Positions 1 to 14,809 of a stretch of 24,875 nucleotides of DNA are shown one piece after another (the first letter of the stretch is position 1; every line of letters starts with the position of its first letter). Location of the stretch: the NCBI GenBank assembly GCA_017538465.1, contig JAFYIW010000348.1:1-24875 (forward strand), in the 5' to 3' direction. A program made the translations under genes and the position numbers. This DNA comes from Victivallales bacterium. GTDB lineage: Bacteria; Verrucomicrobiota; Lentisphaeria; Oligosphaerales; Oligosphaeraceae. The notes under the pieces were generated by a model. The model saw only the letters and a list, made by a program, of their open reading frames with translations, was not told the origin of the DNA and ran no database searches.

Positions 1-498
1 AAGCGCGGTCTGCCCAATCTGCGCACGACGCCCGAGGCCCTCATGCCCCTGCTGGACTCCAAGAACCAGGCGCTGATGGCGAAATATGGCGTCTTCGTCG
101 GCAAGGAGATGGCCTCCCGCTACGAGGTCTTCAAGGAGGAATACGAACGGAAGATCCTCATCGAGGGAAAGATTGCCCTGAAGATCGCCCGCGAGAGCAT
201 CGAGCCGGTCATCTCCGAGCAGCTGCTTGAATTGGCGAAGACCGTCAAAAACCTGCAGGCGATTGGAGTGAGTGCGGGAATTTCCGCGCTGGGGAAAAAC
301 GCCACCCGCCTCGGCGAACACTACGCGAAGCTCGACGGGTGCATTGAGGCGCTCGCCCAGGCGGTGGATGACAATTCCATGCCTGGCATCCTCGAGACCA
401 TGGCGCAGCTCCGCCAAGTGGTCGATACTTTGGAATGCCTGGTGGATGACGCGAAATGGCCTCTTCCAAAATACAGAGAAATGCTATTTATCTACTAG
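1..498 (+). CDS. glnA: Glutamine synthetase type III, C-terminal part (5' end lies outside the window)
   Basis: Frame is open from base 1 (KRGLPNLRTTPEAL...), in frame with ORF 43..498. It ends with the GSIII-typical C-terminus LExLVDDAKWPLPKYREMLFIY and TAG at 496-498. Confidence 0.9.
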   Translation, partial: KRGLPNLRTTPEALMPLLDSKNQALMAKYGVFVGKEMASRYEVFKEEYERKILIEGKIALKIARESIEPVISEQLLELAKTVKNLQAIGVSAGISALGKNATRLGEHYAKLDGCIEALAQAVDDNSMPGILETMAQLRQVVDTLECLVDDAKWPLPKYREMLFIY

Positions 499-511
499 AA
501 TACTAGTAGAT
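490..511. other. Perfect 9-bp inverted repeat overlapping the GS stop codon
   Basis: ATCTACTAG-aata-CTAGTAGAT, followed by an AT-rich tract. Function unknown. Confidence 0.45.
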
Positions 512-530
512 TTAATTGATAATAAAATCC

Positions 531-569
531 ATTCCTGCACGGGCTGTCCATTGGTGGCCGTGCAGGGAT
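531..569 (+). terminator. GC-rich stem-loop between glnA and the SIS gene, possible terminator or processing hairpin
   Basis: CCTGCACGG (534-542) pairs with CCGTGCAGG (558-566), extendable to 12 bp with one G-U. The U-tract is weak (GTGTTTGT). Confidence 0.4.
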
Positions 570-611
570 GTGTTTGTATCGTGCAGCCCCTGTCAATTCC
601 CGTTTGAAAGA

Positions 612-2264
612 ATGAGTGCCCAGTCTGACCGAGCCGCCGAGGATTTTCTTCGGCATGAAACGCAGTTCCATCTGGGTTTTCTGCCGACGGAGCAGTCCAA
701 TCCGCTGACTCGCGACCTGGAGGAGCGTTTCCACGAGTCGCCTGCCGCGGGGGTGCGATGTCTTCAGCGCGTGGATCGCGAGGTGTTGGCGATGGCGCAG
801 CGCGTCTTTGCCTCGGCGGAATACCGCAAGTTGGAAGAGACGATGCTGGCGGTCGTCCGCAGTGGCCATCACGTGGTCTTCTCCGGCTGCGGGGCGACAG
901 GGCGGCTCTCCATCTTGTTGGAGGGGATGTGGCGCGACGCCGTGGAACGCGGGAAGGTCCCCCGTGAGCATCAGGATGCGGTCTTTTCCATCATGACCGG
1001 CGGGGATTTCGCGATGATTCGCGCGGTGGAGTTCTTCGAGGACTACGCGTCCTTTGGAGCACGGCAGGTGCAGGAGCTTTCCATGGTCGAGGGCGACCTG
1101 CTGGTGGCCATCACCGAGGGCGGGGAGACCAGCTCGGTGCTGGGGACCGTCCAGGAGGCCCTGCGCCGCAAATGCGCGGTCTTTCTGCTCTTCAACAACC
1201 CCGCCGAGTTGCTGGCGCGTCGCATTGAGCGCTCGCGCGAGGCCATCGAGGATCCCCGGGTGACGGTGCTGGACCTCTCCTGCGGACCGATGGCGCTGGC
1301 GGGCTCCACGCGGATGCAGGCCACGACCTCCGAGATGCTGGTCGCCGGCGCGGCATTGGAGGAGTGCGCCTGCGTGTTGACGGGGCGCGAGGCGCCGGAT
1401 TGGCCAACGGAGTTCGGAAAGCTGCTTGACGCTCTGGAGGCGTCCCTCTGTGTGCAGGCCTTGGCGGACTACCTTGCGCTGGAGGCCTCCATCTACCGTC
1501 GTGGCGGAACCGTGACCTACTTTGCGGACCGCTTTCTGCTGGATATTTTCACCGATACCGCCGAGCGCACGCCGACCTTCATGCTCCCGCCATTCCGTGC
1601 CAGCGGGGACACGGCGTCGCCACGCTCCTGGTCCTTTGTCAAGAACCCGCGTTTTACCACGGCGGAGACCTGGCGGCATGTGCTGAATCGACCGTTGCGC
1701 TGTCTGAATTGGAGTGCGGAGGAACTGCGTGCGCTGGGCGCTCCCGAGGGAATGGCGGTTCGTCCTCCGGCGATTTCGGTGGATGACATGCTGAAGATTC
1801 GCATCGGCAATGAGGAGGTCGCGGAACGCTGCGAGTCCTCCGAGGACACTGCCGTGTTGCTTACGCTGGGCACGCCTTCGGAGGAGCTTGCCTTGGCATA
1901 CGAGACGCTTGCCAGGGCCTTCCGGAAGTATGTTCGCGCGGATTTGCGTCAATGGGGACTGCCAACGACTCCGGCAACCCCGCTGGAATTGCTGGACCAC
2001 CTCGCGGTGAAACTCGCGCTGAATACCGTCTCCACTGGCACGATGGTGCTGCTGGGGCGGGTGAAGGGCAACTGGATGAGCTGGGTCGCCGCCACCAACA
2101 AGAAGCTTATCGACCGCAGCGCGCGCCTGGTCAGCGAATTGGGAGGAATAGACTACGCCGAGGCCGTGCGGCGCGTCTTCGCCGCGCGTGAGGAAATCGC
2201 CGCCATGCCGCCCGAACAGACGCCTCCCTCGCCAGTCCAGCTGGTTTTGAAGCAGCTGCACTAG
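612..2264 (+). CDS. Double-SIS-domain sugar-phosphate protein, GKRP-like / MurQ etherase family (~550 aa)
   Basis: Motifs TEQSNPLTRDL, GCGATGRL, GGDFAMIRAVEFFED, GPMALAGSTRMQA, DTAERTPTF, KLALNTVSTGTMVLLGRVKGNWM and ATNKKL. ATG 612 was chosen over 516 because the first conserved motif follows closely and 516-611 is intergenic hairpin sequence. Confidence 0.8.
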   Translation: MSAQSDRAAEDFLRHETQFHLGFLPTEQSNPLTRDLEERFHESPAAGVRCLQRVDREVLAMAQRVFASAEYRKLEETMLAVVRSGHHVVFSGCGATGRLSILLEGMWRDAVERGKVPREHQDAVFSIMTGGDFAMIRAVEFFEDYASFGARQVQELSMVEGDLLVAITEGGETSSVLGTVQEALRRKCAVFLLFNNPAELLARRIERSREAIEDPRVTVLDLSCGPMALAGSTRMQATTSEMLVAGAALEECACVLTGREAPDWPTEFGKLLDALEASLCVQALADYLALEASIYRRGGTVTYFADRFLLDIFTDTAERTPTFMLPPFRASGDTASPRSWSFVKNPRFTTAETWRHVLNRPLRCLNWSAEELRALGAPEGMAVRPPAISVDDMLKIRIGNEEVAERCESSEDTAVLLTLGTPSEELALAYETLARAFRKYVRADLRQWGLPTTPATPLELLDHLAVKLALNTVSTGTMVLLGRVKGNWMSWVAATNKKLIDRSARLVSELGGIDYAEAVRRVFAAREEIAAMPPEQTPPSPVQLVLKQLH

Positions 2265-4831
2265 TGTTTCGAGTGAATCACCAGTTTCCCTTGGGTGTTT
2301 TGGGGCAAAGTGACCTCGAAGACGCCGGGTCGGCGAGTGGTCACGGGGCAGGGCGCACCATTATATTCTGCGGCGCAGGAAGTCCCGCCGAGATTTGCGA
2401 TGAGCGTGGCGGAGTCGCCTTTACGTCCGCCGATTTCGAGTTCGGCGCTGAGGCCATCCTGCGTGAGTTCGCAGCTCTTGCGCAGGACATCGAAGCCGTG
2501 GGTGATGGTGCCTGGCACAAAGTATGCCGCATGCCAGATCAGCACGGGTGAGGAGAGGCCTCCGAAGTGGTGCCATCCTGCGCCGCGGCCGGAGCTGATG
2601 GAGAAGTGCTCGTAGCAGGCGTGAGAGGCCTGCACCTCGGTCTCCCAAAGCGTGAGTGCGCGCTCGGCGATTCGCCAGGCGAAATCCGCCTGCGCGTGGT
2701 CCAGTGCGGTCTTCCAGAAGAACCACTGGTAGGGCATCCAGACCGAGCCGTTCCAGTAGCCGTCCGAGCGCGAGTAGGGCGCGGCCAGGTCCACGGTGGA
2801 GAGTCCCGCACGGCACCAGCAGTGCTCGGGGGACTGGAGGGCGTCCCAGAAGCGTGCCTCCTGGGTGGGCGTGGTGACGCCGGCGACCAGCGGCATCACG
2901 CCATCGTAGCCGCGGTTGAAATTCTGTCCCGAGACGTGGCGGAGAATCCCGAGAGGCTTCCCGTCTTTGTCATGGTCCACGTAGCCGAAGAAGCCGGACT
3001 CCTCGTCCCAGGCGTAGGTCTGGAGGGTGTCGGTGAATCGTTGGATGTCGGCGTCATACACCGAGGTGTCTTCTCCCAGCAGCGTCGCCAGGCTTCGCAG
3101 CATCTTCGCGCCGCGGATGATGTGCGAGGTTCCCACGCAGGGGATCGCGGTGAGGCGTTTGGTCTCGTGGACGTGGCGCTGCGGTGGATAGTCGTCCCAG
3201 CCGCCGGAGTTGTAGAAGTAGTCCCAGGTGCAGACGGCGGGCTCCTGGGAGTGCTTGAGGGTGGTGGAGCGCTCGTCGTGCCCGGCGAGGTAGTCGTACA
3301 TCTGCTTGGCTCGCGGATAGAAGTATGCGAGGAGTTCATGGTCGCAGGTACGGTTCCAGAGTTCGTAGAGCAGATACAGCTGCACGGGGACGGGCGAGCC
3401 GTGAAGGACGAACGCGTTGTCCTGGTCGCCGGGCGCGGTGAGGTATGCGTTGAGGTTCTCGACAGCGCGGAGGGTGTCGATTTCGAGCAGTCCGAGTCCG
3501 ATGAATCCGGAGTCCCAAGTGTAGAGGGAATTCCAGAGGCGTCCAGGGGTGTGGTGGCGAACGCTTTTGCCACAGAAGTAGGTGGGATAGACCACATTGC
3601 TCAAGAGAACGGCGGCCATGCGCTCCTGGCTGAAGCGCCACGGCGATGCAGGCCAGACGATGAAACGCGACTCGGCTTCGCGGACGTGTTCCTGCGCACG
3701 GGCGAAGTCGAAGGCACCCAGGCGGGCGGGGAGTTCGTCGGGCGTGCCGTCGGCGACCACTGCGTAGAGCCAGCGGTCGGCGTGGGGTTCCACGCGAAGC
3801 GGCTGGAAGAGCGTCTCGAGGTGGCAGTCGGCTCCGCCGTGCTCGAAGTAGTCCTGCCAGACGTGCTCCTGATGCATCCCGTCGTGGTAGAGGAGGATCT
3901 TCGTGAAGTCATCCACGGAAAACCGGCGGACCAGCGTCTCCGGTGGTTCCCAGCGTATCCCGTAGGCTGTCGCGACATCCGCATAGCGCAAAATGACGGC
4001 GTGGTCGGCACGGGTGTATTCCGGCAGAGAATCGCTGGGTGCTGGCGTGAACATCGGCTCTTCGGGACTGATGGCAAAACAGTCCACCAGCAGTTCTTGG
4101 TCGGCGGAAAACGTGAATGTGTTACAACTTAAATTATTTGTAATTAAATAGTTATGTAAATTTCCATCGCCTTCGATGGCGATGGCGCCGAAATCGCCGG
4201 TCAGTGTCACTTTGCCCAGCGGGGCGGCGCGGAGCCAAAGCTTTTGAGAGGTGATAGGTGAGAGGTGAGAGGTGAGAGGTGAAGTTTTTATATCCTTTGG
4301 GATGCGGTAGGCGGAACCGCCGACGGTGTCGTCCATGCGCTCCTCGTAGGGGGCAAGTGCATCGAAGACCAGTCCGCGCGGCGAGGGGAGGTGTGGCTTG
4401 ATGATTTCCACGCCGGGAGCAGGTTCCAGCATCTTCACGGGATTGGGCACGAGGGAGGCGACGAGGCGGGCGGCGCAGTCCACGGGGAGGTCGGAGTCGT
4501 TCAGGAAATGGCTGGCGACCAGCCGGGTGTGGTCGTCCACTGCCACGAAAGTCACCTCGCAGACGAGTTTTCCCGTGTCGTCGAGTTGTTGCCGATAGGA
4601 ATACGAGGAGAGGTCGGGCGTGACATTCCAGGGGAGATATCCCGAGGGACGCAGCGCATCGGGGAAGGCGATTTTCCGGCGATAGATGCCGGGCATCACG
4701 GTGAAGTCGAAACGCGTGCCACGCGTCTGGTCGGTCAGGTGTGAGACGCCGAAGAAGCGCTTGCCGTAGGGACCCCACGCCGGCAGCGAGAGGTCATGGG
4801 TCTGGGCGAGATGTGCGAAATCGTAGGACAT
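2261..4831 (-). CDS. MGH1-like / GH63-type (alpha/alpha)6 glycoside hydrolase, no signal peptide (856 aa)
   Basis: Motifs LPAWGPY, LYTWDSGFIGLGL, SGGWDDYP, GYWNGSVWMPYQW and YEHF typical of six-hairpin inverting glycosidases (GH63/GH37-like). Long GC3-rich ORF. Confidence 0.75.
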   Translation of the reverse strand: MSYDFAHLAQTHDLSLPAWGPYGKRFFGVSHLTDQTRGTRFDFTVMPGIYRRKIAFPDALRPSGYLPWNVTPDLSSYSYRQQLDDTGKLVCEVTFVAVDDHTRLVASHFLNDSDLPVDCAARLVASLVPNPVKMLEPAPGVEIIKPHLPSPRGLVFDALAPYEERMDDTVGGSAYRIPKDIKTSPLTSHLSPITSQKLWLRAAPLGKVTLTGDFGAIAIEGDGNLHNYLITNNLSCNTFTFSADQELLVDCFAISPEEPMFTPAPSDSLPEYTRADHAVILRYADVATAYGIRWEPPETLVRRFSVDDFTKILLYHDGMHQEHVWQDYFEHGGADCHLETLFQPLRVEPHADRWLYAVVADGTPDELPARLGAFDFARAQEHVREAESRFIVWPASPWRFSQERMAAVLLSNVVYPTYFCGKSVRHHTPGRLWNSLYTWDSGFIGLGLLEIDTLRAVENLNAYLTAPGDQDNAFVLHGSPVPVQLYLLYELWNRTCDHELLAYFYPRAKQMYDYLAGHDERSTTLKHSQEPAVCTWDYFYNSGGWDDYPPQRHVHETKRLTAIPCVGTSHIIRGAKMLRSLATLLGEDTSVYDADIQRFTDTLQTYAWDEESGFFGYVDHDKDGKPLGILRHVSGQNFNRGYDGVMPLVAGVTTPTQEARFWDALQSPEHCWCRAGLSTVDLAAPYSRSDGYWNGSVWMPYQWFFWKTALDHAQADFAWRIAERALTLWETEVQASHACYEHFSISSGRGAGWHHFGGLSSPVLIWHAAYFVPGTITHGFDVLRKSCELTQDGLSAELEIGGRKGDSATLIANLGGTSCAAEYNGAPCPVTTRRPGVFEVTLPQNTQGKLVIHSKH
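4245..4282. repeat. Heptamer tandem repeat (TGAGAGG)x5 + TGA inside the GH63-like CDS
   Basis: TGAGAGG TGATAGG TGAGAGG TGAGAGG TGAGAGG TGA, translated on the minus strand within TSPLTSHLSPITSQK. Confidence 0.9.
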
Positions 4832-4870
4832 TTGCGTTTCGTGAGAGAGTGATGAAAAGGAATCGCCACT

Positions 4871-6145
4871 CTACCAGGTGACCTTGAGGAGGATGGCGTG
4901 TCCAGGAGCGAGCCAGGTCCCCTCGCCGTCCCAGCCGCCGTAGGTGATGACTTTGCCTGCACGCTGCTGGGAAAGCACCTGGATTTCCTTCGGGGGGGTG
5001 CGCCATACAAGGCCGCCGATGCTCGTGGAGTTCTTGCGGTTCTTGTTGAGGATCATCACGTAGGCCTCGCCGGTCTGACGATGGCGGAATTCGCCGACGG
5101 CCAGCGCCGCGCCGGGATTCCGTATGCCTTTGATGAACGAGCCTTCGCCGGGGACGTCCTCGCGCTCCAGCCGTTCGCCTGGCTGGAAATGATAGACTGC
5201 GGTGGATTCCAGCTGGTTCAGTACGGGGGCCAGCGCATGAACGGAGCAGAGGGCGTTGCGCAGGGCATACCATGTTGGCGAGCGGTGACCCCACAGGTCG
5301 ATGGGGGCGCAGCGGTAGTTGCCCAGGTCGGGCGTGAAGTAGGTGAAGAACTGCAGCCCCCTGGCGCCGTAGAGGAGTCCGGAGTAGATTTCGAAGAAAA
5401 GGTCGTCCTCGGTGGGGATGCGGTAGGGGAGATGCCCCACGGTGAGCACGCAAAGCTGGAAGGGGACGCCGTGGCGGATGGCGGCCTCGCGGGCGTCGGC
5501 GAGGTTCCTCCACCAGCCGTCATCGCGTTCGGGTTCGCTCCCCCCTTCCTCCATCAGGCCATAGAAGTCGTAGCCGAACCAGTTGGGGTGCACCATGTCG
5601 ATGAAGGTATCCAGGTGGGCGGCGTAGCCATGGTTTCCGATATATCCAGGTGGGACATAGTTGGGGTTGAGATTGATGTAACGTTCATGGCCAGGGTCGG
5701 CGAGTTTGAAGGCGGTGGAGGCGTCAGCCACGATGTGGAAGTGGTCGAGTTTGGGTTCATCTACGATGTAGTAGCCGTAGAGGGCGGGATGGTCGGCATA
5801 TTTGGCCACGACTTTCTGGGCGGCGTCCCACCAGTCCACCTCCTCGCCGTCATAGCCTTTCCAGAAGGTGGAATGGAAGTCGCTGTCCAGAATCCAGGCG
5901 ACCATTCCTGCCTGATGGATGAGGTCGAGTTCCTCGCGGGAATTGGCGAAACCGGCGATGGTGATGCCGCATTCGGCCATCGTGTCGAAGACCTCCTGGG
6001 TGAGCGGGCCAGGAGAATTGACCCGGTTCATTCCCCAGGCGCAGATCGGGAACCACTCGGCGTCGCCCGGGCGTGGATGGTCGGCGGCAATGACATTCAC
6101 GGCAAGGCAAAGCAGACAGAGGATGAGGGAAAGATAACGTTTCAT
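4871..6145 (-). CDS. Secreted uncharacterised TIM-barrel glycoside-hydrolase-like protein (DEP family), paralogue A
   Basis: Signal peptide MKRYLSLILCLLCLAVNVIA|AD gives start 6145 rather than 6181. Motifs FPICAWG, GYYIVDEP, YINL, YDFY, YGARGLQFFTY and GEFRHRQTG are shared with the three tandem genes at 10221-14075. Confidence 0.8.
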   Translation of the reverse strand: MKRYLSLILCLLCLAVNVIAADHPRPGDAEWFPICAWGMNRVNSPGPLTQEVFDTMAECGITIAGFANSREELDLIHQAGMVAWILDSDFHSTFWKGYDGEEVDWWDAAQKVVAKYADHPALYGYYIVDEPKLDHFHIVADASTAFKLADPGHERYINLNPNYVPPGYIGNHGYAAHLDTFIDMVHPNWFGYDFYGLMEEGGSEPERDDGWWRNLADAREAAIRHGVPFQLCVLTVGHLPYRIPTEDDLFFEIYSGLLYGARGLQFFTYFTPDLGNYRCAPIDLWGHRSPTWYALRNALCSVHALAPVLNQLESTAVYHFQPGERLEREDVPGEGSFIKGIRNPGAALAVGEFRHRQTGEAYVMILNKNRKNSTSIGGLVWRTPPKEIQVLSQQRAGKVITYGGWDGEGTWLAPGHAILLKVTW

Positions 6146-6191
6146 GGCGGTGAAATGGGGGGCGGGATTTAGGGACGTCAAAAAGCGGTTG

Positions 6192-6220
6192 ATTATACTT
6201 TACAGACTTTTTGCAGATTT
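6192..6220 (-). promoter_or_regulatory. Putative -10 box for the leftward operon with an upstream 11-bp direct repeat
   Basis: TATAAT on the minus strand at 6192-6197, ~47 nt before ATG 6145. Direct repeat TTTACAGACTT / TTTGCAGATTT at 6199-6220 (9/11 identical). No good -35. Confidence 0.5.
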
Positions 6221-6250
6221 GTCGCTGGAGACACAGTAAAATGCTATAGT
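6219..6250 (+). promoter_or_regulatory. Putative promoter for the oxidoreductase (extended -10)
   Basis: TG-C-TATAGT at 6242-6250, with TTGTCG at 6219-6224 (20-nt spacer). Confidence 0.45.
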
Positions 6251-6326
6251 AACGGAAATCACTGGAGGTCTGCGGCACATGAGACCCGCCATGTGATGGC
6301 CAAATTTTCAGAGGGACACCCCATTC

Positions 6327-7502
6327 ATGCGAGAGAACAGGTTAGTCGGCGCGCAAATTGGCTGTGGAGCATTTGCCAGAGAACAGCATCTGCCCAACAT
6401 GGCGTCAATGGGGGATGTCTGCCTCAAATACTGCTGCGACCCGGTGGCGGAGCAGGCCGCTTCCGCCGCACGGGAATATGGCGCCGAACGGCCGGTGGCG
6501 GACTTTCGGGAAGCCGTCGCGGACCCCGAGGTGGACTTTCTCACCATTGCCACCCCGCATGACCAGCATCTGCCCATCATCCAGTCGGCGGCCGCTCATG
6601 GCAAGCACGTCTTCTGCGAGAAGCCGATGGCGATGACGATGCCGGAGGCATTTGAAGTCATCCGGCTGGTCAAGCACAGCGGCATCAAGTTCTGCGTGGA
6701 CTTGAATCGACGCATGGCGCCCTCCATGAAAGCCCTGCGGGAAAGAGTGCACCGCCAGCAGGCCTCGCCGCGGCATCAGCCGTGGCGCTATGTGGAGACG
6801 GACCGCGAGGAGTTGCCGGAGGAAACACACACCCATCTGCTAATCCGCATCCAGGACGAAAGCTCGAGCTACCGGATGATTCACCTGGACCCCGCGCACG
6901 GCGGCGGGCAGATTCTTGGCGAGTCCGTGCATTGGCTGGATTTGGCTTGCTGGTTCTTTGCGCCGGCACGTCCCGTCGAGGTCACCGCCTGGGGCGGTGT
7001 CCGCATGAATCATGGAATCAACCTGAAGTTCGACAACGGCGACTCCGCCACGCTGGATTTCAGTTCCTGCGGGACCTTCGATTTCCCCAAGGAACTCTAC
7101 GAGGTCACCTCCCGGGCCGCGCTTTTTCGCAACCTCTTCTTCGTCGAAAACCGCTATTACGGCATTCCCGGGCTGGAGAAGGAGGTCTTCCCTTTGCAAC
7201 ATGACGACCTGCGCTCTGCGATTCCGGGCGAGGGCTTCGATGCCTTCTTGGCGAAAAGCCAGGCCAGAGCACGCCAGGCCGGCGAGAATCTGCGCAATGT
7301 TCCGCAACGGCTGGTGGTGGACAAGGGGCACCGCAATATGATGCGGGGATTCTTCGAGGCCATCCGCGTCAACGGCAGAACGCCCTGCGACGAATACTGC
7401 GGAATGCAGGCGACGCTTCTGGCGCTGCTGGCCATCCAGTCCATCAAGACGCGTAGTACGCTTCCCGTGCTGATGGAGGAATGGCGTCCCGCGATCGTCT
7501 AG
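6327..7502 (+). CDS. Gfo/Idh/MocA family NAD(P)-dependent oxidoreductase
   Basis: Rossmann motif IGCGAFAREQHLP, IATPHDQH, HVFCEKPMA and GGGQILGESVHWLD. GAGGG RBS-like sequence upstream. Confidence 0.9.
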   Translation: MRENRLVGAQIGCGAFAREQHLPNMASMGDVCLKYCCDPVAEQAASAAREYGAERPVADFREAVADPEVDFLTIATPHDQHLPIIQSAAAHGKHVFCEKPMAMTMPEAFEVIRLVKHSGIKFCVDLNRRMAPSMKALRERVHRQQASPRHQPWRYVETDREELPEETHTHLLIRIQDESSSYRMIHLDPAHGGGQILGESVHWLDLACWFFAPARPVEVTAWGGVRMNHGINLKFDNGDSATLDFSSCGTFDFPKELYEVTSRAALFRNLFFVENRYYGIPGLEKEVFPLQHDDLRSAIPGEGFDAFLAKSQARARQAGENLRNVPQRLVVDKGHRNMMRGFFEAIRVNGRTPCDEYCGMQATLLALLAIQSIKTRSTLPVLMEEWRPAIV

Positions 7503-7549
7503 CCGGGCATTCTCGCGGATGTTTTATAATTTGCCTTCGTGGAATAATT

Positions 7550-7634
7550 TGGTGCGAGAGGCGGGACTTGAACCCGCACGCCTTGCGGCACGAGAACCTA
7601 AATCTCGGGCGTCTGCCAATTCCGCCACTCTCGC
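7550..7634 (-). tRNA. tRNA-Leu (anticodon UAG)
   Basis: Minus strand GCGAGAGTGGCGGAATTGGCAGACGC-C-CGAGA-TTTAGGT-TCTCG-variable arm-GCGGGTTCAAGTCCCGC-CTCTCGC-ACCA. 85 nt, encoded CCA, long variable arm. Confidence 0.97.
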
Positions 7635-7642
7635 GGTTAGGT

Positions 7643-7680
7643 AAAAAAAAAGAATCTCGTTTCGCGGAGATTCTTCTTTT
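7643..7680 (-). terminator. Intrinsic terminator-like hairpin between the two tRNA genes (possibly bidirectional)
   Basis: AAGAATCTC (7650-7658) pairs with GAGATTCTT (7667-7675). The A-run at 7643-7651 gives a U-tract on the minus strand, and TTCTTTT follows on the plus strand. Confidence 0.7.
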
Positions 7681-7686
7681 CGTGAC

Positions 7687-7773
7687 TGGTACCAGAGAAA
7701 GGACTTGAACCTTCACGGGCGTAAGCCCACTGCGACCTGAACGCAGCGCGTCTGCCAATTCCGCCACTCTGGC
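7687..7773 (-). tRNA. tRNA-Leu (anticodon CAG)
   Basis: Minus strand GCCAGAGTGGCGGAATTGGCAGACGC-G-CTGCG-TTCAGGT-CGCAG-variable arm-GAAGGTTCAAGTCCTTT-CTCTGGT-ACCA. 87 nt. Confidence 0.97.
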
Positions 7774-7795
7774 ATCTTCGATTGTCAATGCGCTT

Positions 7796-7823
7796 ACTTT
7801 AATAGACGATTCCACGTTGTCAA
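7796..7823 (-). promoter_or_regulatory. Sigma70-type promoter for the tRNA pair
   Basis: Minus strand TTGACA (7818-7823), 16-nt spacer, TAAAGT (7796-7801), ending 22 nt upstream of tRNA-Leu(CAG). Confidence 0.6.
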
Positions 7824-7920
7824 ATCCCAAAGGAAATTTTTTTGTCAATTCGTGTCGCCCGGCTAGTGGAATCATCCGTGCTGCGGCTTGAGATAAATAA
7901 CCCGACTACCTTTAAGTTTC

Positions 7921-10083
7921 ATGAAGCATCTCGTTCGCCTTCTGCTTTGCGCCTTCTGTTTTGCGGCGTCCGTCGTCTCTGCCGAAATCATCCGGGATAT
8001 CCGGTTTGACGGACGGCCGCTGAAGGAACAGGGCGTGGAAGCGAAAAAGGACTACGGGGATCATCGTGGCATTGTCACCCAACTGCCGGCGGTCGCCGTG
8101 GAGGGCGCTGCTGTACAACCATGGCTCCTCTTCAATCCGGGTGATCGCAGCTGGACAGCGCTGGTGACGGACCTGGAGGGGCTGAAACTTCCCGCCGGCA
8201 CGCGCATCCGCCTGACCGTCTGGGTGAAAAGCAATCGTCCCGGCTATGTCCGAGTCGCGCTCTCCGAGGGCGTCTCCTACGGCGGGGACTGCCGTCTTTT
8301 GTCGCGTGGGCAGGGGATGTTTCCGTATGTGCGCCAGGCGCTGATTCTGGAACGGACGCTGGTGGAGGAAAGCGAGCTGCTCTCGGCGGCGGTGGGCATC
8401 GACTACCAAAGCGCGGGTGCCTGGGCGGCGGTGGACCGCATTTGCGTGGAGACGCTGATGAACGACGAGCTGGTCTCGCCCGGCGCCATCCCCGCCACGG
8501 ACTATCCGGAGCTTCTCATCACTTCAGAGCAGGCGTCAATTGTCGCGGCGGAAGTCGAAAGGCAACTGACGATTACGCAGAAGGAAATCGCGGCGCTGGA
8601 GGCGGCGGGCTTTGCCGAGCACGAGAGCGTCGTGCGTCGCCGCGAGGCCACGCGCCGGCTGGAGGATTTCCTGTCCGGTCGGCAATCCTCCATTAACCTG
8701 CTTGAGGTGGAACAGCAGTGGTTTGCGGATGCGGTGCAGCTTCAGCTTCAGCCCGAGTTGTTCGATTTCACCCAGAAGAGCATGCTGTTGCCGGAGAGTT
8801 CGACGCTCTGGAATGCGCGCGCGCCGCAGGGCGGGCATGACGGCGCGGTACTGCTGGTCTCCAATCAAAGTTGCCAGCCGCTGACCTACCAGCTTACGTT
8901 GCAGGGGGAACTCTGCCAGGCTCTCCGCTTCCGGAAACTGGCATGGGTGAATGAGCGGGCGGATTGCGCCGTGGAGACGGCGATGGACACGCTCCAGGAG
9001 ATCCCGTCCGAGGCCATCCAGGCATACGCGCTGGAATTCCGCGCCGGCGAATTGCCGCCGGGCACCTACGAGGGCGAGGTCGTGCTTACGCCACTGGGGG
9101 ATCGTTACCCTGTTCGGACGGCCAAATTGAGCTTCACCGTGCTGCCTTGGCGGATGTCCGCCCAGATGCCGGTGCGGACCTTCCTCTTCGACTATGGACA
9201 CGCCCTGCGGCCGGAGATGGCCCCGCTGATGAAGGAAGGGCGGCTTAACACCATCCAGTTTAATCTGGACGGCCGTGACCTCTCGCGAATCGCGAAATAC
9301 ACGCGCCAGATCGAGGCGGCCGGGCTGCGTGAAGGGTGCTTCGCCTACATCGAGGAGTGGTTCACCCGCGAGGAGGGTTGGCACGAAAAGGACGACGAGT
9401 GGCTTGACCAGCTCTGCGCCGAGATGGAGCGCAACGGCTGGGACTACGACGAGTGGTGCCTGCACATCTTCGACGAGGTCTTCGGCGACCTCTTCCTCGA
9501 GTGCGCCAAGGCCATCAAGGCCCATAATCCGAAGGTCCAGATCTTCTCGGACATGCTGGTGACCGACCTGGAGGTCCTGGAGCGCTTCAATCCCTACCTG
9601 GATTTCTATTGTCCGCACATCCGCACGCAGTTTCCGCCAGAGCGTGCCAATTACCAGAAGGCAATCGACTACATCTACGCCTCCGGGCATCCCGTCTGGC
9701 TCTACGACTGCGATTCCTGCGCCGTGCATCCCCTCGACATCGCCCGCGCCATCTCCTGGCGTGCTTGGCTGGACGGGGCGAAGGGCATCACCTACTGGGC
9801 ATTGATTGCCAGTCGGTTGCGAGCTCCAGAGGCGGGCGTGGAGAACTGGGGAATGACCTATCCCCTCGGAGGGAAATGGGTGCCCAGCCGTCGGCTCCTG
9901 ATGTATTTCGCCGGTCTGGAAGACTACCTTCTGCTGGAACGGGCCGCCGAACTCCAGCCTGAGCGCACGCGCGAAATCGCCCAGCGAGTCGTGGATGCCT
10001 TCTCCTACGGACAAAACACGATGTGCCAGGCGCACTACGCCGCCCGACAAGAACTGCTGGATATCATCGAGGCTGCCCAATAG
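7921..10083 (+). CDS. Secreted multidomain protein: N-terminal CBM-like beta-sandwich plus GH123/DUF4091-like catalytic region (720 aa)
   Basis: Signal peptide ...AASVVSA|EI. CBM-like LTVWVKS...AVDRICVE and Ig-like LPPGTYEGEVVLT segments. C-terminal LHIFDEV, WLYDC, GAKGITYW and SRRLLMYFAGLEDYLL resemble GH123/DUF4091 motifs. Confidence 0.6.
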   Translation: MKHLVRLLLCAFCFAASVVSAEIIRDIRFDGRPLKEQGVEAKKDYGDHRGIVTQLPAVAVEGAAVQPWLLFNPGDRSWTALVTDLEGLKLPAGTRIRLTVWVKSNRPGYVRVALSEGVSYGGDCRLLSRGQGMFPYVRQALILERTLVEESELLSAAVGIDYQSAGAWAAVDRICVETLMNDELVSPGAIPATDYPELLITSEQASIVAAEVERQLTITQKEIAALEAAGFAEHESVVRRREATRRLEDFLSGRQSSINLLEVEQQWFADAVQLQLQPELFDFTQKSMLLPESSTLWNARAPQGGHDGAVLLVSNQSCQPLTYQLTLQGELCQALRFRKLAWVNERADCAVETAMDTLQEIPSEAIQAYALEFRAGELPPGTYEGEVVLTPLGDRYPVRTAKLSFTVLPWRMSAQMPVRTFLFDYGHALRPEMAPLMKEGRLNTIQFNLDGRDLSRIAKYTRQIEAAGLREGCFAYIEEWFTREEGWHEKDDEWLDQLCAEMERNGWDYDEWCLHIFDEVFGDLFLECAKAIKAHNPKVQIFSDMLVTDLEVLERFNPYLDFYCPHIRTQFPPERANYQKAIDYIYASGHPVWLYDCDSCAVHPLDIARAISWRAWLDGAKGITYWALIASRLRAPEAGVENWGMTYPLGGKWVPSRRLLMYFAGLEDYLLLERAAELQPERTREIAQRVVDAFSYGQNTMCQAHYAARQELLDIIEAAQ

Positions 10084-10116
10084 TCGCCCGTTTCCTGCGC
10101 CTGTGCCCGTTCTGTG

Positions 10117-10136
10117 CCCGCGCCTTCTTGCGCGGG
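10117..10136 (+). terminator. GC hairpin after the GH123-like gene
   Basis: CCCGCGC-cttctt-GCGCGGG followed by TTCATT (weak U-tract). Confidence 0.4.
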
Positions 10137-10140
10137 TTCA

Positions 10141-10172
10141 TTGTCGGCGAAATCGCCAAACGGCTCTATATT
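10141..10172 (+). promoter_or_regulatory. Putative promoter/operator upstream of the tandem paralogue array
   Basis: TTGTCG-N20-TATATT with the dyad GGCGA-AA-TCGCC at 10146-10157. Confidence 0.4.
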
Positions 10173-10220
10173 AGAAATGATTTCTTTGGTTTGTGTTCTC
10201 AACCCCTAACTTGAGGTGAT

Positions 10221-11513
10221 ATGATGCGAAAAACCTTCTGGGCGGCAGCGTGCGTCTGCCTGTTGTCAACCTTTCTTTGGGCTGGGGAAGGCTCGGTCTC
10301 GGCGAAGCTGCTTGGCCTGAACGATGACCAGTTCCCGATTCTGGCGTGGGGCGGAATTACCCTCGAGCCGCTGGTGCGCCAGCCGGAATACTACCGCGAG
10401 ATGAAGGCGTGCGGCTTTACCATCGCATGCACGGCCTACAATGACGCGCAGATTGACGCGGCCCGCGAGGCGGGAATGAAGGTCCTCTTGGGAAACAGCG
10501 CCTTCGGCAACCGCGACTGGATGAAGCCCGATCCCGTTGGCTGGGCGGCGGACTTCGCGCCCTTCGCCGAAAAGTACAAGGACGACCCCGCCGTCGCCGG
10601 CTTCTATGTCAAGGACGAGCCGCAGACGACCGAGCTGGACGGCCTGGTCCCGATGGCGCAGACCATCCTGGACCAGAGCGGCAAACTCCCCTACATCAAT
10701 CTCTATCCCCTCTCGGCGAACATCACGCACTTCCTGCCGCTGACCTATGCCGAACACGTCGAGAAGTATATGCGCGAGAACCCCTCGCCGGTTGCCAGCT
10801 TCGACCAGTATGTCTTCTTCGAGGACGGGCAGATTCGCGAGACCTTCTACACCAACTTCAAGATCTTCCGCGACGCCGCGCTGAAATACGACAAGGAGTG
10901 GTGGTATATCGGCCTTTCCATCGCCCACCGCCACTATGCGGTGCCCACCTACGCGCAGATGAACCTGGCCGCCTTCGCCGCGCTGGCGTACGGTGCCCGT
11001 GGCATCAGCTGGTTTAAGTACTCCGACATCGGCCGCCCCGGCTGGTGGGCGGCCCCGCTCACCCCCTTCGGCGAAAAGACGCCCGTCTGGTTTGCGCTCC
11101 AGCGCGTGAACCGCTCCATCCAGAACTACGCATACGTCCTCAACCACCTCAAGAGCGACCGCGTGTACCACTTCATCACTCCCGCCACCAACAACCCCGA
11201 GCGCTCCGACGGACCGGACGCCGACAGCCTGATTTCCAGCGTGGTCAATATCGGCAAGGACCCCTTCCGCACCGGCGGCAACTGGATTGTCGGCGAATTC
11301 ACCCACGACCAGACTGGCGACCGCTACATGATCGTGGTCAACAAGGACCTCGACCGCACCTCGGAGTTCATCCCCGTGTGGCGAGATGGCAAGAAGCCCA
11401 AGGAGGTCCGCTACATCCAGGAGGCCAGCCACAACGAGACGCCTTTCGGACGCAGCACCGACTCCGACATCCTGGAGCCCGGCGGCTCCGTAATCCTCCA
11501 CCTCATCTACTAA
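10221..11513 (+). CDS. Secreted uncharacterised DEP-family TIM-barrel protein, paralogue B
   Basis: RBS GAGGTG (true start may be ATG 10224). Signal peptide ...STFLWA|GE. Motifs FPILAWG, GFYVKDEP, FDQY, YGARGISWF and GEFTH. Confidence 0.85.
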   Translation: MMRKTFWAAACVCLLSTFLWAGEGSVSAKLLGLNDDQFPILAWGGITLEPLVRQPEYYREMKACGFTIACTAYNDAQIDAAREAGMKVLLGNSAFGNRDWMKPDPVGWAADFAPFAEKYKDDPAVAGFYVKDEPQTTELDGLVPMAQTILDQSGKLPYINLYPLSANITHFLPLTYAEHVEKYMRENPSPVASFDQYVFFEDGQIRETFYTNFKIFRDAALKYDKEWWYIGLSIAHRHYAVPTYAQMNLAAFAALAYGARGISWFKYSDIGRPGWWAAPLTPFGEKTPVWFALQRVNRSIQNYAYVLNHLKSDRVYHFITPATNNPERSDGPDADSLISSVVNIGKDPFRTGGNWIVGEFTHDQTGDRYMIVVNKDLDRTSEFIPVWRDGKKPKEVRYIQEASHNETPFGRSTDSDILEPGGSVILHLIY

Positions 11514-11540
11514 CCACCAACGCGATAGGAGACCAAGCAA

Positions 11541-12815
11541 ATGAAACGACTCTTTCTGACGATTCTCTGCCTCGCGCTGGCAGCCCAATTCCTCCACGCC
11601 GCCGACGAGCTCCTCTTCCCCATCCTGGGCTGGGGCGTGATGGGCAATGCACATCATATTGAAAAGACCCCCGGTCTTCCCTATGACCACGACCCCGAAC
11701 TCTACCGCGAGATGAAGGACTGCGGGTTCTCCATCGCCGGCTTCGCCCACCGCGCCGAGCAGGTCGCCGCCGCCAAGGAGGCGGGCGTGAAGGTCTTCTG
11801 GTATGACGATCCCATCTGCAACCAGGACTGGGCGAACCTCGACCTCGAGAGGTTCCGCAACGACTTCATCAGAATCAACGAGCAGTGGAAAGACGAGCCG
11901 ACGGTCTGCGGATACTACCTCCAGGACGAGCCACGCGCCGCCGCGCTGGACAACCTGGCCGCCGCCTGCCAGATCGTCCGCGAGGTCGCCCCGGACAAGG
12001 ACCCCTACGTGAATCTCTTCTCCAGCAGCACGCAGCTCTACAACTACGCGCCTCTTACCTACGAAGCGTATGTGGAGAAGGTGATGGAGGGCAATCCCGC
12101 CCCCAACACCGGCTACGACCAGTATGTCTTCTACGAGGACAACCATGTGCGCGAGACGCTCTTCGGCTGCTGCGAGGTCTTCCGGAAACTCTCGCTCAAG
12201 CACAACAAGTCGTGGTGGTACTGCGGACTCTCCATCGCTCACCGCAACTACGCGGTGCCTACTTACGAACAGCTTAGCCTGGCGGCCTGGAGCGCAATCG
12301 CCTATGGTGCGAAAGGCCTGGCATGGTTCACCTACTTCGACTCCAATCGCACCGGCTGGCACTCCGCGCCGCTGAACGCCTACGGCGACCGCACCCCCAC
12401 CTGGTATCATCTCAAGCAGGTCAACCGCAGCGTCCAGAGTCAGGCGTCGGTTCTGCTGAAGCTGCGCAACGACCGCACCTACCATTTCGGCTCCACCGTT
12501 CCGGAATCCTCCGAACGCGTGAATGGCCCGGACGAGGGCAGCCTGATTTCCGGCGTGCTCAACGGCACCCACTGGCTGGTCGGCGAATTCACCCACGAGG
12601 AGACCGGCGAGCGCTATCTGGTGGTGGTCAACAAGGACATGACACACGCCAACGAGTTCATCCCCGTGTGGCGCGAGGGAAAGAAGCCCTTGAAAGTGAT
12701 GGTGAGGCTCAACCAGCTCAACCCCAGCGAAATCCCCTTCAACCGCACGCCCAACGACACCAACATCTTCGAGCCGGGTGGCGCGGCGGTCCTCCACCTC
12801 ATCTATGAAAAGTAA
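11541..12815 (+). CDS. Secreted uncharacterised DEP-family TIM-barrel protein, paralogue C
   Basis: RBS AGGAG. Signal peptide ...AQFLHA|AD. Motifs FPILGWG, GYYLQDEP, YDQY, YGAKGLAWF and GEFTH. Confidence 0.85.
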   Translation: MKRLFLTILCLALAAQFLHAADELLFPILGWGVMGNAHHIEKTPGLPYDHDPELYREMKDCGFSIAGFAHRAEQVAAAKEAGVKVFWYDDPICNQDWANLDLERFRNDFIRINEQWKDEPTVCGYYLQDEPRAAALDNLAAACQIVREVAPDKDPYVNLFSSSTQLYNYAPLTYEAYVEKVMEGNPAPNTGYDQYVFYEDNHVRETLFGCCEVFRKLSLKHNKSWWYCGLSIAHRNYAVPTYEQLSLAAWSAIAYGAKGLAWFTYFDSNRTGWHSAPLNAYGDRTPTWYHLKQVNRSVQSQASVLLKLRNDRTYHFGSTVPESSERVNGPDEGSLISGVLNGTHWLVGEFTHEETGERYLVVVNKDMTHANEFIPVWREGKKPLKVMVRLNQLNPSEIPFNRTPNDTNIFEPGGAAVLHLIYEK

Positions 12816-12836
12816 CGCTTACAGGAGGAAACACTG

Positions 12837-14075
12837 ATGAAAAAACTCATCCTGACCATTATGTTCTGCCTGGGCGCTACGCTTTTCGCAGTCGAACCCA
12901 ATCAGTTCCCCATCCTGGGCTGGGGCGTCCTTGACTATCTCCCGGAACATTCCAAGACGCCTGAGTTCTACGAGGAGATGAAGGAGTGCGGATTCACCAT
13001 CGCCGGATTCGCCTCCAATGATGCGCAGGTGGCCGCCGCTAGGCAGGCCGGAATGCAGGTCATCATCTGGCATCGCGACATCGCCGCCGTGGACTTCCGC
13101 CACCCCGATGCCGACGCCTGGCGCGAGAAGGTCAAGGCCGTCGTGGACAAATACGCCGACGAACCCGCCGTCTGGGGATATTACGTCAAGGACGAACCGG
13201 AACTGGCGGACATGGAGGGCGTCGCCATCATGTGCCAGCTCATCCGCGAACTGGCGCCTGGCAAGGAGCCCTACGCGAACCTCTATCCGCCCAGCGCCAA
13301 CCCGAACCACTGGGCACCGCTGGACTTCGAGGGCTATGTCGAGAAGGCGATGACGGAATTCGCCTCGAAGGCGGTCGGCTACGACCAGTATGTCTTCTAC
13401 GAGGACGGCAATGTCCGCGAGACGATGCAGAAGGGCTACAAGGTCTCCCGCGAGAAGGCGCTGGCCGCCGGCAAGGAGTGGTGGTATTGCGGACTCTCGA
13501 TTGCACACCGCACCTACGCGGTGCCGACCTTCCCGCAGCTCAACATGGCGGCCTTCAGCGCGCTGGCCTACGGCGCACGCGGGCTGGCGTGGTTCACCTA
13601 CCTCGACACGCGGATGCAGGGCTGGCATGACGCGCCGCTCAACGCCTACGGCGAGCGTACCCCGACCTGGTGGGCGCTCAAGCGCGTGAACCGCGACATC
13701 CAGGGACTCGCGCCTATCCTGAACCACCTCAAGAGCGACCGCGTCTATCACTTCGGCGACACCGTCCCCGGCTCAGCCGAACGCCTCAACGGCCCCGATG
13801 GAGGAAGCCTAATCTCCGGGATGCTCCTCTCCAGCCACTGGCTGATCGGCGAGTTTACCCATGACGAGACTGGCGACCGCTACCTGATCGTGGTGAACAA
13901 GGACACGACGCATACCAACGAGTTCCTCCCGCAGTGGCGGGACGGCAAGGTGCCCGCGCAGGTCAACTACGTCTTCACCGTCTTCCCCAACCGGGAGTGC
14001 GGAATCAACCGCAAGCCCAACGACAACAACATCTTCGAGGCCGGCGCCGCCGCGCTCCTGCACCTTCACTACTAG
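12837..14075 (+). CDS. Secreted uncharacterised DEP-family TIM-barrel protein, paralogue D
   Basis: RBS AGGAGG. Signal peptide ...GATLFA|VE. Motifs FPILGWG, GYYVKDEP, YDQY, YGARGLAWF and GEFTH. Confidence 0.85.
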   Translation: MKKLILTIMFCLGATLFAVEPNQFPILGWGVLDYLPEHSKTPEFYEEMKECGFTIAGFASNDAQVAAARQAGMQVIIWHRDIAAVDFRHPDADAWREKVKAVVDKYADEPAVWGYYVKDEPELADMEGVAIMCQLIRELAPGKEPYANLYPPSANPNHWAPLDFEGYVEKAMTEFASKAVGYDQYVFYEDGNVRETMQKGYKVSREKALAAGKEWWYCGLSIAHRTYAVPTFPQLNMAAFSALAYGARGLAWFTYLDTRMQGWHDAPLNAYGERTPTWWALKRVNRDIQGLAPILNHLKSDRVYHFGDTVPGSAERLNGPDGGSLISGMLLSSHWLIGEFTHDETGDRYLIVVNKDTTHTNEFLPQWRDGKVPAQVNYVFTVFPNRECGINRKPNDNNIFEAGAAALLHLHY

Positions 14076-14119: not shown

Positions 14120-14809
14120 ATGCCAAGCAATCCCTTCATCGTGATTCCCTGCTACCGCGAGGACCCGGCGGTCGTGCGGCGCACGGTGGAGGGCATTGTC
14201 GGGGGGGCCTGGAAGATTGTGCTGGTGGATGACGGCTCGCCGGAGAAGCTTGTCCTGAATTGTCCAGAATTGTCTCAAAAAGTCACAATTCTGCGTCATC
14301 CCGTGAATCGCGGGCAGGGCGCGGCGTTGCAGACGGGCGCGGACTACGCGGTGCGCCATGGCGCAGATGCCGTGGTGCACTTTGACGCGGATGGCCAGCA
14401 CGACCCGCAGGACATCCCGCGCTTCCTTGCGGCACTGGATGCAGGAGACTGCGACATCGTTCTGGGGTCGAGATTCCTGCGTCCAGAGGATCTGGCTGCT
14501 ATTCCTGCCGGCCGCCGGCGGTTGCTTCGTCTGGCGCGTTTCGTGGAGACTTGCCTGACGGGGCTGGAGTTGACGGATGTCCACAATGGCTTTCGGGCGT
14601 TGGGGCCGCGCGCGCTGGCGGTCATTCGCATCCGCGAGGATCGCATGGCGCACGCCAGCGAGATTCTGATGCAGGTGGCACGAAAGCATCTTCGCTGGAA
14701 GGAACTGCCCACGCACATCGTCTATAGCGAGTATTCCTCCTCCAAGGGGCAGAAGGTCGGGAACGCTTTCAATATCCTTTGGGATCTTTTGCTGGGGAAA
14801 TGGCTGTGA
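14120..14809 (+). CDS. Glycosyltransferase family 2 (DPM/polyprenol-phosphate synthase-like)
   Basis: Motifs VIPCYRE, LVDDGS, HPVNRGQGAALQTG, FDADGQH, GSRF and DVHNGFRA. Confidence 0.9.
   Translation: MPSNPFIVIPCYREDPAVVRRTVEGIVGGAWKIVLVDDGSPEKLVLNCPELSQKVTILRHPVNRGQGAALQTGADYAVRHGADAVVHFDADGQHDPQDIPRFLAALDAGDCDIVLGSRFLRPEDLAAIPAGRRRLLRLARFVETCLTGLELTDVHNGFRALGPRALAVIRIREDRMAHASEILMQVARKHLRWKELPTHIVYSEYSSSKGQKVGNAFNILWDLLLGKWL

Follow-up and report, generated by a model that had tools for sequence, protein, structure and literature searches.

The DNA considered here, hereafter the window, is a stretch of 24,875 nucleotides corresponding to contig C385 of genome G000, a 2.3-Mb metagenome-assembled genome (MAG) of a Victivallales bacterium, 85% complete. 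Its region 612-14075 carries eight protein genes that an initial annotation, made from the sequence alone, had taken for a single glycan catabolic system. Five of them encode predicted exported glycosidases, namely P720 and four paralogues of a family called DEP (DEP1 to DEP4). The three others encode a SIS-domain protein (SIS), a GH63-like hydrolase and a Gfo/Idh/MocA oxidoreductase (Gfo). The following map was obtained from the listing of open reading frames (ORFs), a tRNA scan and Pfam and NCBIfam searches.

1-498, plus strand: C-terminus of GlnN (Pfam and NCBIfam)
612-2264, plus strand: SIS, GKRP/MurQ-like double-SIS protein of 550 aa, predicted to be cytoplasmic (PF22645, 1.2e-11)
2261-4831, minus strand: GH63/MGH1-like (alpha/alpha)6 hydrolase of 856 aa, without signal peptide (PF22422, 1.5e-26; PF03200, 6.6e-8)
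4871-6145, minus strand: DEP4, secreted DEP-family paralogue with a Sec-type leader
6327-7502, plus strand: Gfo, Gfo/Idh/MocA NAD(P) oxidoreductase of 391 aa, predicted to be cytoplasmic (PF01408, 1.3e-21)
7550-7634, minus strand: tRNA-Leu(tag) (tRNA scan)
7687-7773, minus strand: tRNA-Leu(cag) (tRNA scan)
7921-10083, plus strand: P720, predicted secreted glycosidase of 720 aa, distant member of the GH123 superfamily (family profile and fold)
10221-11513, plus strand: DEP1, secreted DEP paralogue
11541-12815, plus strand: DEP2, secreted DEP paralogue
12837-14075, plus strand: DEP3, secreted DEP paralogue
14120-14809, plus strand: GT2, glycosyltransferase of the polyprenyl-phosphate type (best NCBIfam match, PpgS)
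14820-15410, plus strand: RNase T-like exonuclease
15452-16843, plus strand: MurC
16897-24875, minus strand: RecD, RecB and RecC (Pfam)

Several of these genes are closely packed. The SIS and GH63-like genes are convergent and their stops overlap by 4 bp; DEP4 and, downstream of it, the co-directional GH63-like gene are 39 bp apart. The tandem paralogues DEP1, DEP2 and DEP3 are separated by 27 and 21 bp and are followed, with gaps of 10-44 bp, by the co-directional, housekeeping-type genes GT2, RNase T and MurC. The gene orientations described in the initial annotation are those found here, but the divergent promoters that it placed between them are not supported, since 6 sigma-70-like sites were counted against 3.4 ± 1.9 expected.

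Signal peptides were judged by direct reading of the N-termini (basic residues, Kyte-Doolittle values of 12-mers, cleavage-like site). P720 and DEP1 to DEP4 all display two K/R residues, then a hydrophobic core of 12 residues (Kyte-Doolittle mean, 2.3-3.1) and a small-x-small site of A-x-A-like type. No hydrophobic leader segment is found in SIS (score -0.1) or in the GH63-like protein (0.2), and the N-terminal hydrophobicity of Gfo (1.5) is that of its Rossmann beta1-Gly motif. The division into five Sec-type exported proteins and three proteins devoid of a signal peptide, as first proposed, is thus borne out. The same is true of the absence of SusC/D, ABC transporter, kinase and regulator from the window: a Pfam scan of all window ORFs found none of these, nor a sensor. 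Two minus-strand ORFs of 1062 and 553 aa, suspected by their size of being SusC/D, are RecB and RecD.

Gene order in related genomes

Each protein was searched in 40 relatives from the same genus, family and order, and counts are given over 41 genomes. The genus is represented by four genomes, G000 to G003, all of them 'Victivallales bacterium' MAGs (phylum Lentisphaerota) from rumen and abomasum; gene order in them was derived from a tblastn map of the fetched regions and from the tRNA scan. In G001, G002 and G003, the series tRNA-Leu(tag), tRNA-Leu(cag), P720, DEP1, DEP2, DEP3, GT2, RNase T and MurC is collinear with the window. The adjacency of all eight genes, on the other hand, is not kept in related genomes, the kept part being P720-DEP1-3 with GT2-RNase T-MurC. 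A metagenome contig of 81% identity also retains DEP1-3-GT2-RNase T-MurC, with no P720 upstream.

The left half of the cluster behaves differently. GlnN and SIS are adjacent and collinear in G001 and G002, and the adjacency of SIS with the GH63-like gene is confined, within the genus, to G000 and G002. Orthologues of DEP4 (78-80% identity) lie on other contigs in G001-G003; in G002, 70 kb separate this orthologue from the GH63-like gene, which there comes after a GH39-like gene and an amidohydrolase gene. The nearest homologues of Gfo in the genus are only 55-57% identical and are also on other contigs. Overall, the homologues of SIS, GH63-like, DEP4 and Gfo in G001-G003 are unlinked from P720-DEP1-3 and mostly also from one another, and the four families P720, DEP, GH63-like and SIS co-occur in this genus only. 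The GH63-like orthologue of G001 (C350:7514-10147) contains one in-frame TGA and gives two split matches; a pseudogene, a sequencing error or a frameshift are possible.

The tRNA-Leu pair is where the window ceases to be syntenic with the other species of its genus, and the DNA to the left of this pair differs between species. In G002, a sigma-54 activator and PriA are found there. In G003, eleven co-directional genes encoding proteins of 80-876 aa without Pfam match (L095:525-9288) take the place of Gfo, DEP4 and GH63-like, and this run is possibly a prophage remnant. A genomic island targeted to the tRNA genes of the window was considered and rejected: positions 1-8000 contain no att-like repeat of a tRNA 3' end, and the G+C content stays even (0.59-0.65), without compositional break. 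The left half therefore corresponds to a rearrangement or synteny breakpoint and not to a demonstrable insertion. Nor does the gene order result from a chimeric assembly, because the order GlnN-SIS-GH63L-DEP4-Gfo-P720-DEP1-3-GT2 recurs, with identical proteins, in two ENA scaffolds from other samples. Another break in synteny is located downstream of MurC (16843-16897 in the window, compared with L095:19303 and L001:13994). MurC is followed in the window by RecD, RecB and RecC on the minus strand, with a lower G+C content (0.52-0.56), and in G003 and the 81% relative by AIRC (PurE-type), with LarC-like genes next in G003.

The comparison of gene neighbourhoods, which the initial annotation had named as the observation able to refute its proposal, thus goes against the idea of one pathway: the left half is dispersed in relatives and only the P720-DEP1-3 block holds. 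Because the eight-gene 'system' dissolves in sister species, its contiguity in one MAG cannot be taken as evidence of a pathway. We see in the cluster an ordinary mosaic, specific to the species, within a Lentisphaerota genome rich in carbohydrate-active enzymes. The first description had also stressed an organisation unlike that of the polysaccharide utilization loci of Bacteroidota. Like these SusC/D-centred loci, the window has secreted glycosidases side by side; it differs from them by the absence of SusC/D, sensor and regulator, by its Lentisphaerota host and by a gene set that is not conserved as a unit. Such an organisation is expected for Lentisphaerota and is therefore not a distinguishing feature.

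Considering these data together with the properties of the exported enzymes described below, we lean, without great assurance, towards reading 612-14075 as the species-specific juxtaposition of three units, with P720 and DEP1-3 as a core of secreted glycosidases acting on N-acetylhexosamine (HexNAc). The first unit would be GlnN with SIS, SIS being widespread in the family and having other partners in relatives. The second would be a variable carbohydrate-active set, unlinked in sister species, made of the cytoplasmic GH63-like protein, the secreted DEP4 and the cytoplasmic Gfo. The third would be the genus-conserved block of the two tRNA-Leu genes, P720, DEP1, DEP2, DEP3, GT2, RNase T and MurC, whose protein genes may be transcribed together.

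P720 and the DEP family

Searched as a single sequence against PDB, Pfam and NCBIfam, P720 gives nothing significant. It has no Pfam family at E<=0.01 and is not listed in a genome-wide search with PF13320 (GH123_cat, formerly DUF4091) at E<=1. An exhaustive search nevertheless yields 358 representatives of its homologues at E<=1e-3. In an alignment of 35 P720 homologues, the pair D518-E519 does not vary and W512, Y595, G622, W626 and Y647 are nearly invariant; six of the 35 match PF13320 (best, 1e-13). Since P720 itself does not, its GH123 membership holds at the superfamily level only. The family profile matches NgaDssm 8k2j (4.6e-21), 8k2h (2e-12) and BvGH123 (4e-5), with DE motifs aligned. 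With the AlphaFold2 model of P720 (pLDDT 90.9), the top 21 Foldseek matches in PDB are all GH123 or Group 1-4 beta-N-acetylgalactosaminidases (E 3e-29 to 1e-20, target TM 0.54-0.63).

In the model, an N-terminal beta-sandwich resembling a carbohydrate-binding module (CBM; residues ~22-180) is followed by a helical linker, then by a beta-sandwich of the GH123 type and by the TIM barrel that bears D518-E519. The beta-sandwich preceding a (beta/alpha)8 barrel is that of the GH123 fold, and the Asp-Glu motif sits after barrel strand 4, as in GH123 enzymes. The same genome encodes, besides P720, seven canonical PF13320 GH123 proteins of 539-1294 aa (contigs C279, C391, C138, C380, C37, C336 and C149; loci L100 and L107-L112). 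In all seven, the Asp-Glu pair is invariant, with D-E-P as alignment consensus, and hhalign of the P720 family against them gives 99.9% probability (E 2e-31), again with DE motifs aligned. Literature searches on Victivallales or Lentisphaerae with GH123 returned nothing specific.

Because the invariant DE pair, the profile, the fold and the hhalign comparison agree, P720 is predicted to be a divergent GH123-superfamily enzyme with an extra N-terminal CBM-like sandwich, missed by the Pfam and NCBIfam models tried. The GH123-like label given at the outset is retained by family profile and fold only, Pfam being blank for P720 itself. With GH123 and Groups 1-4 (NgaP, CpNga123, BvGH123, NgaDssm, NgaAt, NgaCa, NgaLy; Sumida et al., 2024, PMC11087588), P720 shares the beta-sandwich and (beta/alpha)8 architecture, the DE motif that follows strand 4 and the Gly...Trp motif of strand 8. 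It differs from them by its additional CBM-like domain, its helical linker and its lack of a PF13320 score. In these enzymes, the DE motif serves the substrate-assisted, retaining hydrolysis of beta-linked N-acetylgalactosamine (GalNAc), or of HexNAc in Group 2 (PMC11087588). The near-invariant Y595 of P720 is taken to correspond to Y392, the substrate-contacting Tyr reported for NgaLy (PMC11087588).

Direct searches with DEP3 against PDB, Pfam and NCBIfam also give nothing significant; for both proteins, the informative evidence came from family profiles and predicted folds. No family of Pfam or NCBIfam includes the DEP proteins: sub-threshold GH42 matches are all that nine of 37 members produce, and none of the 37 matches PF13320. 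The window genome has seven DEP-family genes, three of which are beyond the window. DEP1, DEP2 and DEP3 are 45-53% identical to one another. In a maximum-likelihood tree, each forms an orthologue clade that is well supported and to which the 81% relative also contributes, so that the triplication is older than the genus. DEP4 falls in a separate deep subfamily, with a paralogue on contig C28.

The AlphaFold2 model of DEP (pLDDT 94.2) consists of a (beta/alpha)8 barrel starting at residue 26, where the signal peptide has just ended, and of a C-terminal beta-sandwich (298-411), the only extra domain. In Foldseek, its best matches are GH35, GH42, PslG, GH157 and GH164, with TM scores of 0.5-0.66 and 10% identity. 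The DEP family profile gives weak matches to GH42 over strand 8 (3e-5) and to GH158 (1e-4), GH157 and GH5 over strands 3-4, the Asp-Glu pair being aligned there on the 'NE' of clan GH-A. In 37 DEP sequences, D119, E120, P121, N148, D183 and R205 are invariant, and D-E-P follows strand 4, which ends at 119. The strand-7 nucleophile position, in a strand end of the type L-S/A-x-A-H, is occupied by Ser (20), Ala (10), Gly (4) or Thr (3). Of the two glutamates of a retaining clan GH-A enzyme, the one after strand 4 is therefore present in DEP and the strand-7 nucleophile is absent.

DEP thus shares with clan GH-A (GH42, GH35, GH157/GH158, GH5, GH39-like PslG) the fold and the order of motifs, namely a Glu, an x-Y motif and an aromatic residue following strands 4, 6 and 8, respectively, and it equals PslG in two-domain size. 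It departs from the clan by the change of Asn-Glu to Asp-Glu, of the strand-7 Glu to Ser/Ala/Gly and of the strand-6 His to Asp183. With GH123, it has in common the DE(P) motif after strand 4, the absence of an enzymic nucleophile in all 37 sequences and the strand-8 motif. It differs by lacking the N-terminal beta-sandwich and the DUF4091 core, and by having a C-terminal beta-sandwich instead. When the DEP and P720 families are compared by hhalign, a probability of 87.8% is obtained (E 3e-6) over 197 columns that cover all eight strands, and the alignment superposes the DE motifs as well as those of strand 8; against canonical GH123 the probability is only 22.9%. DEP proteins are probably substrate-assisted beta-N-acetylhexosaminidases, as far as sequence and model can tell. 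The N-acetyl theme of the initial annotation may accordingly be kept for the exported enzymes, P720 and DEP, on account of their invariant Asp-Glu pair; its extension to one route of eight genes is not.

How the four Sec-exported glycosidases of the core, P720 and DEP1-3, would work may be envisaged as follows. DEP would be a smaller barrel family of the clan GH-A type, remotely akin to P720. In both, the Asp-Glu pair after strand 4 would serve the substrate-assisted, retaining hydrolysis of beta-linked GalNAc or N-acetylglucosamine, the Asp orienting the 2-acetamido group, which would act as nucleophile, and the Glu acting as acid/base. N-acetylhexosamine glycans would be trimmed outside the cytoplasm, and their uptake and downstream metabolism would be encoded elsewhere.

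A number of observations weigh against the reading of the locus favoured here. Some concern the kinship of DEP with GH123. The hhalign comparison of DEP with canonical GH123 is weak (22.9% probability, E 9e-4, 54 columns around the DEP motif), and no GH123 structure is found in the top 50 Foldseek matches of the DEP model. The DEP position near Y595 of P720 is unconserved (Y in 13/37, N in 11/37), and the invariant D183, after strand 6, could be an alternative nucleophile or base. Others concern the linkage of the genes. Outside the genus, the adjacency of P720 and DEP is lost. The closest DEP homologues (45-50% identity, gut Lentisphaeria) lie among housekeeping genes, at times in independent tandem arrays, and P720 homologues of other lineages (29-36% identity) adjoin varied catabolic genes, never DEP genes. 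Finally, the species-specific clustering seen in the window could still be adaptive.

A bolder proposal goes further than this and appears to us doubtful, if possible. DEP would be a new glycoside hydrolase family of minimal, single-barrel, substrate-assisted beta-N-acetylhexosaminidases, derived from a GH42-like barrel of clan GH-A by an Asn to Asp change and loss of the nucleophile, and sister or precursor of GH123. In rumen Victivallales, DEP proteins and a divergent relative of GH123 would act together as a set of four secreted enzymes that divide the specificities between them. A weaker addition would be that the species recently recruited DEP4, GH63-like and Gfo beside the block, assembling a new pathway. 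In any case, DEP is a widespread, uncharacterised family not covered by any model of Pfam or NCBIfam, and its conserved residues point to neighbouring-group catalysis, here predicted for a scaffold of clan GH-A. If the proposal were true, DEP would add a family to CAZy and represent an evolutionary bridge between GH42-type and GH123-type barrels. It would also improve the annotation of N-acetylhexosamine glycan turnover (mucin-type, glycosaminoglycan, microbial cell-surface) in rumen and soil bacteria of the Planctomycetes-Verrucomicrobia-Chlamydiae (PVC) group.

Neighbourhoods of the homologues and competing explanations

Among the 41 genomes, the DEP family is present in 15, a strong P720 match in seven (G000-G004, G013 and G024), SIS in 24 and the GH63-like protein in six. 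With one genome per species, DEP-family loci number at least 515 and span PVC phyla, Armatimonadota, Acidobacteriota, Hydrogenedentota, Sumerlaeota and some Bacteroidota. Eighty of them were kept with 10-kb flanks, of which 77 are outside the genus. In none of these 77 loci does a P720 or GH63-like homologue occur within 10 kb; a weak SIS-domain match (28% identity) is seen in one locus and weak Gfo-type matches in two. Clustering of all flanking ORFs revealed no recurrent DEP neighbour in the 77 loci, the commonest being DUF1559/N_methyl proteins (8), sulfatase (4) and SSF transporter (4). GH123 genes flank DEP genes in two loci, one in Pirellulales and one in Armatimonadia. In the window genome itself, a second GH123-then-DEP adjacency exists on contig C37, where a canonical GH123 gene (403-2910, minus strand) is separated by 35 bp from a DEP gene cut by the contig end. 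Overall, a GH123 gene stands next to a DEP gene at four places.

Around the P720 homologues of other lineages, the neighbours encode heparinase II/III-like proteins, GH2, GH43, SASA esterase, fucose kinase/pyrophosphorylase and a GntR-type regulator. At locus L105, the P720 homologue (5861-7972, 33% identity) is directly downstream of the gene of a heparinase II/III-like or DSE-like protein (2550-5762, 1070 aa), which hints at glycosaminoglycan-type substrates for that branch of the family. A 416-aa gene downstream of the P720 homologue (L104/L105) was examined as a possible DEP relative and rejected.

Several alternatives to the juxtaposed units with a HexNAc-specific core may be considered. 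In the first one, DEP proteins would be clan GH-A glycosidases, or clan GH-A carbohydrate-active enzymes that do not hydrolyse, in which a catalytic residue has moved and which act on non-acetylated sugars such as beta-galactosides; the Asp-Glu pair would then not be linked to neighbouring-group catalysis. The nearest sequence and fold relatives of DEP are indeed GH42, GH35, GH158, GH157 and GH5, not GH123, the invariant D183 and N148 could supply a base or a nucleophile, and the candidate acetamido-binding Tyr is unconserved. However, where the clan has Asn, DEP has an invariant Asp, just as GH123 and GH20-type enzymes do, none of the 37 sequences retains the strand-7 nucleophile, the homology signal to the P720/GH123-like family spans the whole barrel, and GH123 and DEP genes are found side by side at the four places mentioned above. 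We consider this alternative unlikely.

In a second alternative, P720 and DEP1-3 would serve, together with the downstream GT2, to remodel the envelope of the cell itself or an exopolysaccharide rather than to feed on external glycans, as do PslG or PgaB in biosynthetic operons. GT2-RNase T-MurC always comes after DEP3, with the short gaps given above, and PslG (4zn2), of equal two-domain size, is the second-best fold match of DEP. The closest DEP homologues lie among housekeeping, type II secretion system and Kdo-transferase genes, and capsule or O-antigen roles have been suggested for some beta-N-acetylgalactosaminidases (PMC11087588). The best NCBIfam match of GT2 is the polyprenyl-phospho-GalNAc synthase PpgS (1.8e-49), but at 168 bits its score is far under the cut-off of 370. 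A GT2 gene is also found directly before the DEP homologue at L098 and L016, yet such an adjacency concerns only two of the 77 other kept loci. In addition, P720 homologues elsewhere adjoin the catabolic genes already listed (heparinase II/III-like, GH2, GH43, SASA esterase, fucose kinase), and seven further GH123 genes are present in the genome. Many GH123 genes are a pattern typical of glycan foragers. An envelope role is therefore regarded as distinctly improbable. The small GT2 of the polyprenyl-phosphate-sugar-synthase type stands directly beside DEP in three Lentisphaeria lineages (window 14120-14809; L098:685-1365; L016:9096-9749), and the GT2s of L098 and L016 are only 25% identical to that of the window.

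Last, the eight genes might after all constitute one pathway from periplasm to cytoplasm, in which fragments of an N-acetylated or ether-substituted glycan released by the secreted DEP and GH123-like enzymes would be finished by the cytoplasmic GH63-like, Gfo and MurQ-like SIS proteins. The genes are contiguous in this species in an order found in independent assemblies, DEP4 and GH63-like lie 39 bp apart on one strand, each of the four genomes of the genus possesses all four families, and the fusion of SIS to, or its position beside, glycosidase-like domains in relatives makes a sugar-phosphate role plausible. This proposal is nonetheless very unlikely to hold, given a gene order unconserved even within the genus, with dispersal in G001-G003, differing phyletic patterns (SIS 24/41 against GH63-like 6/41), the near-absence of the partners from the 77 loci, convergent SIS and GH63-like genes that cannot share a transcript, and a window without transporter or kinase to link the two compartments.

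SIS, the GH63-like protein and Gfo

The juxtaposition of separate units, which we favour, may be examined also from the side of the non-secreted proteins, whose family labels (GH63-like, Gfo/Idh/MocA, GKRP/MurQ-like) are confirmed by Pfam, NCBIfam and PDB matches. The best NCBIfam match of SIS is MurNAc-6-P etherase (2e-40), with scores below every NCBIfam MurQ cut-off (138.7 bits against 168 for NF003915; 105.5 against 302 for TIGR00274). In PDB, it matches MurQ 4s12 (3.5e-21) and GKRP (7e-11). The likeness to MurQ and vertebrate GKRP is limited to the first, N-terminal SIS domain; SIS differs from them by its length of 550 aa, its two SIS-like halves and the DUF6259 fusion of its relatives. 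In most family members, SIS is the N-terminal half of a fusion of ~1250-1330 aa with DUF6259 (PF19773, 6.4e-64), and frames of fusion size (1212-1334 aa) occur in G007, G008, G010, G012, G013, G018, G019, G023 and G024; in the genus of the window, SIS is stand-alone. At L010:9011-13009 of G012, the SIS-DUF6259 fusion is followed by a GHL6/alpha-L-fucosidase-like gene. SIS therefore has its own, different sugar-related partners in relatives. A GlnN-SIS fusion, suspected from frames of 1200-1330 aa in relatives, was rejected, the partner being DUF6259. No similarity was found between DUF6259 and the N-terminus of the GH63-like protein.

The GH63-like protein scores 94.3 bits with PF22422 (cut-off 27) and 32.2 with PF03200 (cut-off 22.4), and matches 2z07 TTHA0978 (5e-7) and YgjK (1.5e-4) in PDB. 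On this sequence evidence, it has a bona fide MGH1-type catalytic domain. As in the GH63/MGH1-like hydrolases (TTHA0978, YgjK, mannosylglycerate/glucosylglycerate hydrolases), the C-terminal (alpha/alpha)6 domain is above the Pfam cut-off. The protein differs from these enzymes by an N-terminal part of 430 aa without any match and by very low equivalog scores.

Within the GH63-like gene, an array of the heptamer TGAGAGG (4245-4282) attracts many unrelated contigs from all four ruminant metatranscriptomes that were compared (word depth 6.5-87). Because these contigs have unlike flanks, the array is a low-complexity match and not evidence of expression. At 80% likeness, the four metatranscriptomes give, besides tRNA and low-complexity matches, short fragments of 150 nt matching DEP1 and one of 295 nt matching P720. 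As these come from relatives, they are uninformative on co-regulation, and no public RNA run with the window DNA was found. The species is present as DNA in samples SAMN15830049 and SAMN15830079.

As for Gfo, its best solved relatives are DgpA and levoglucosan dehydrogenase, matched over the Rossmann domain only, and its sequence places it among sugar dehydrogenases of the generic type.

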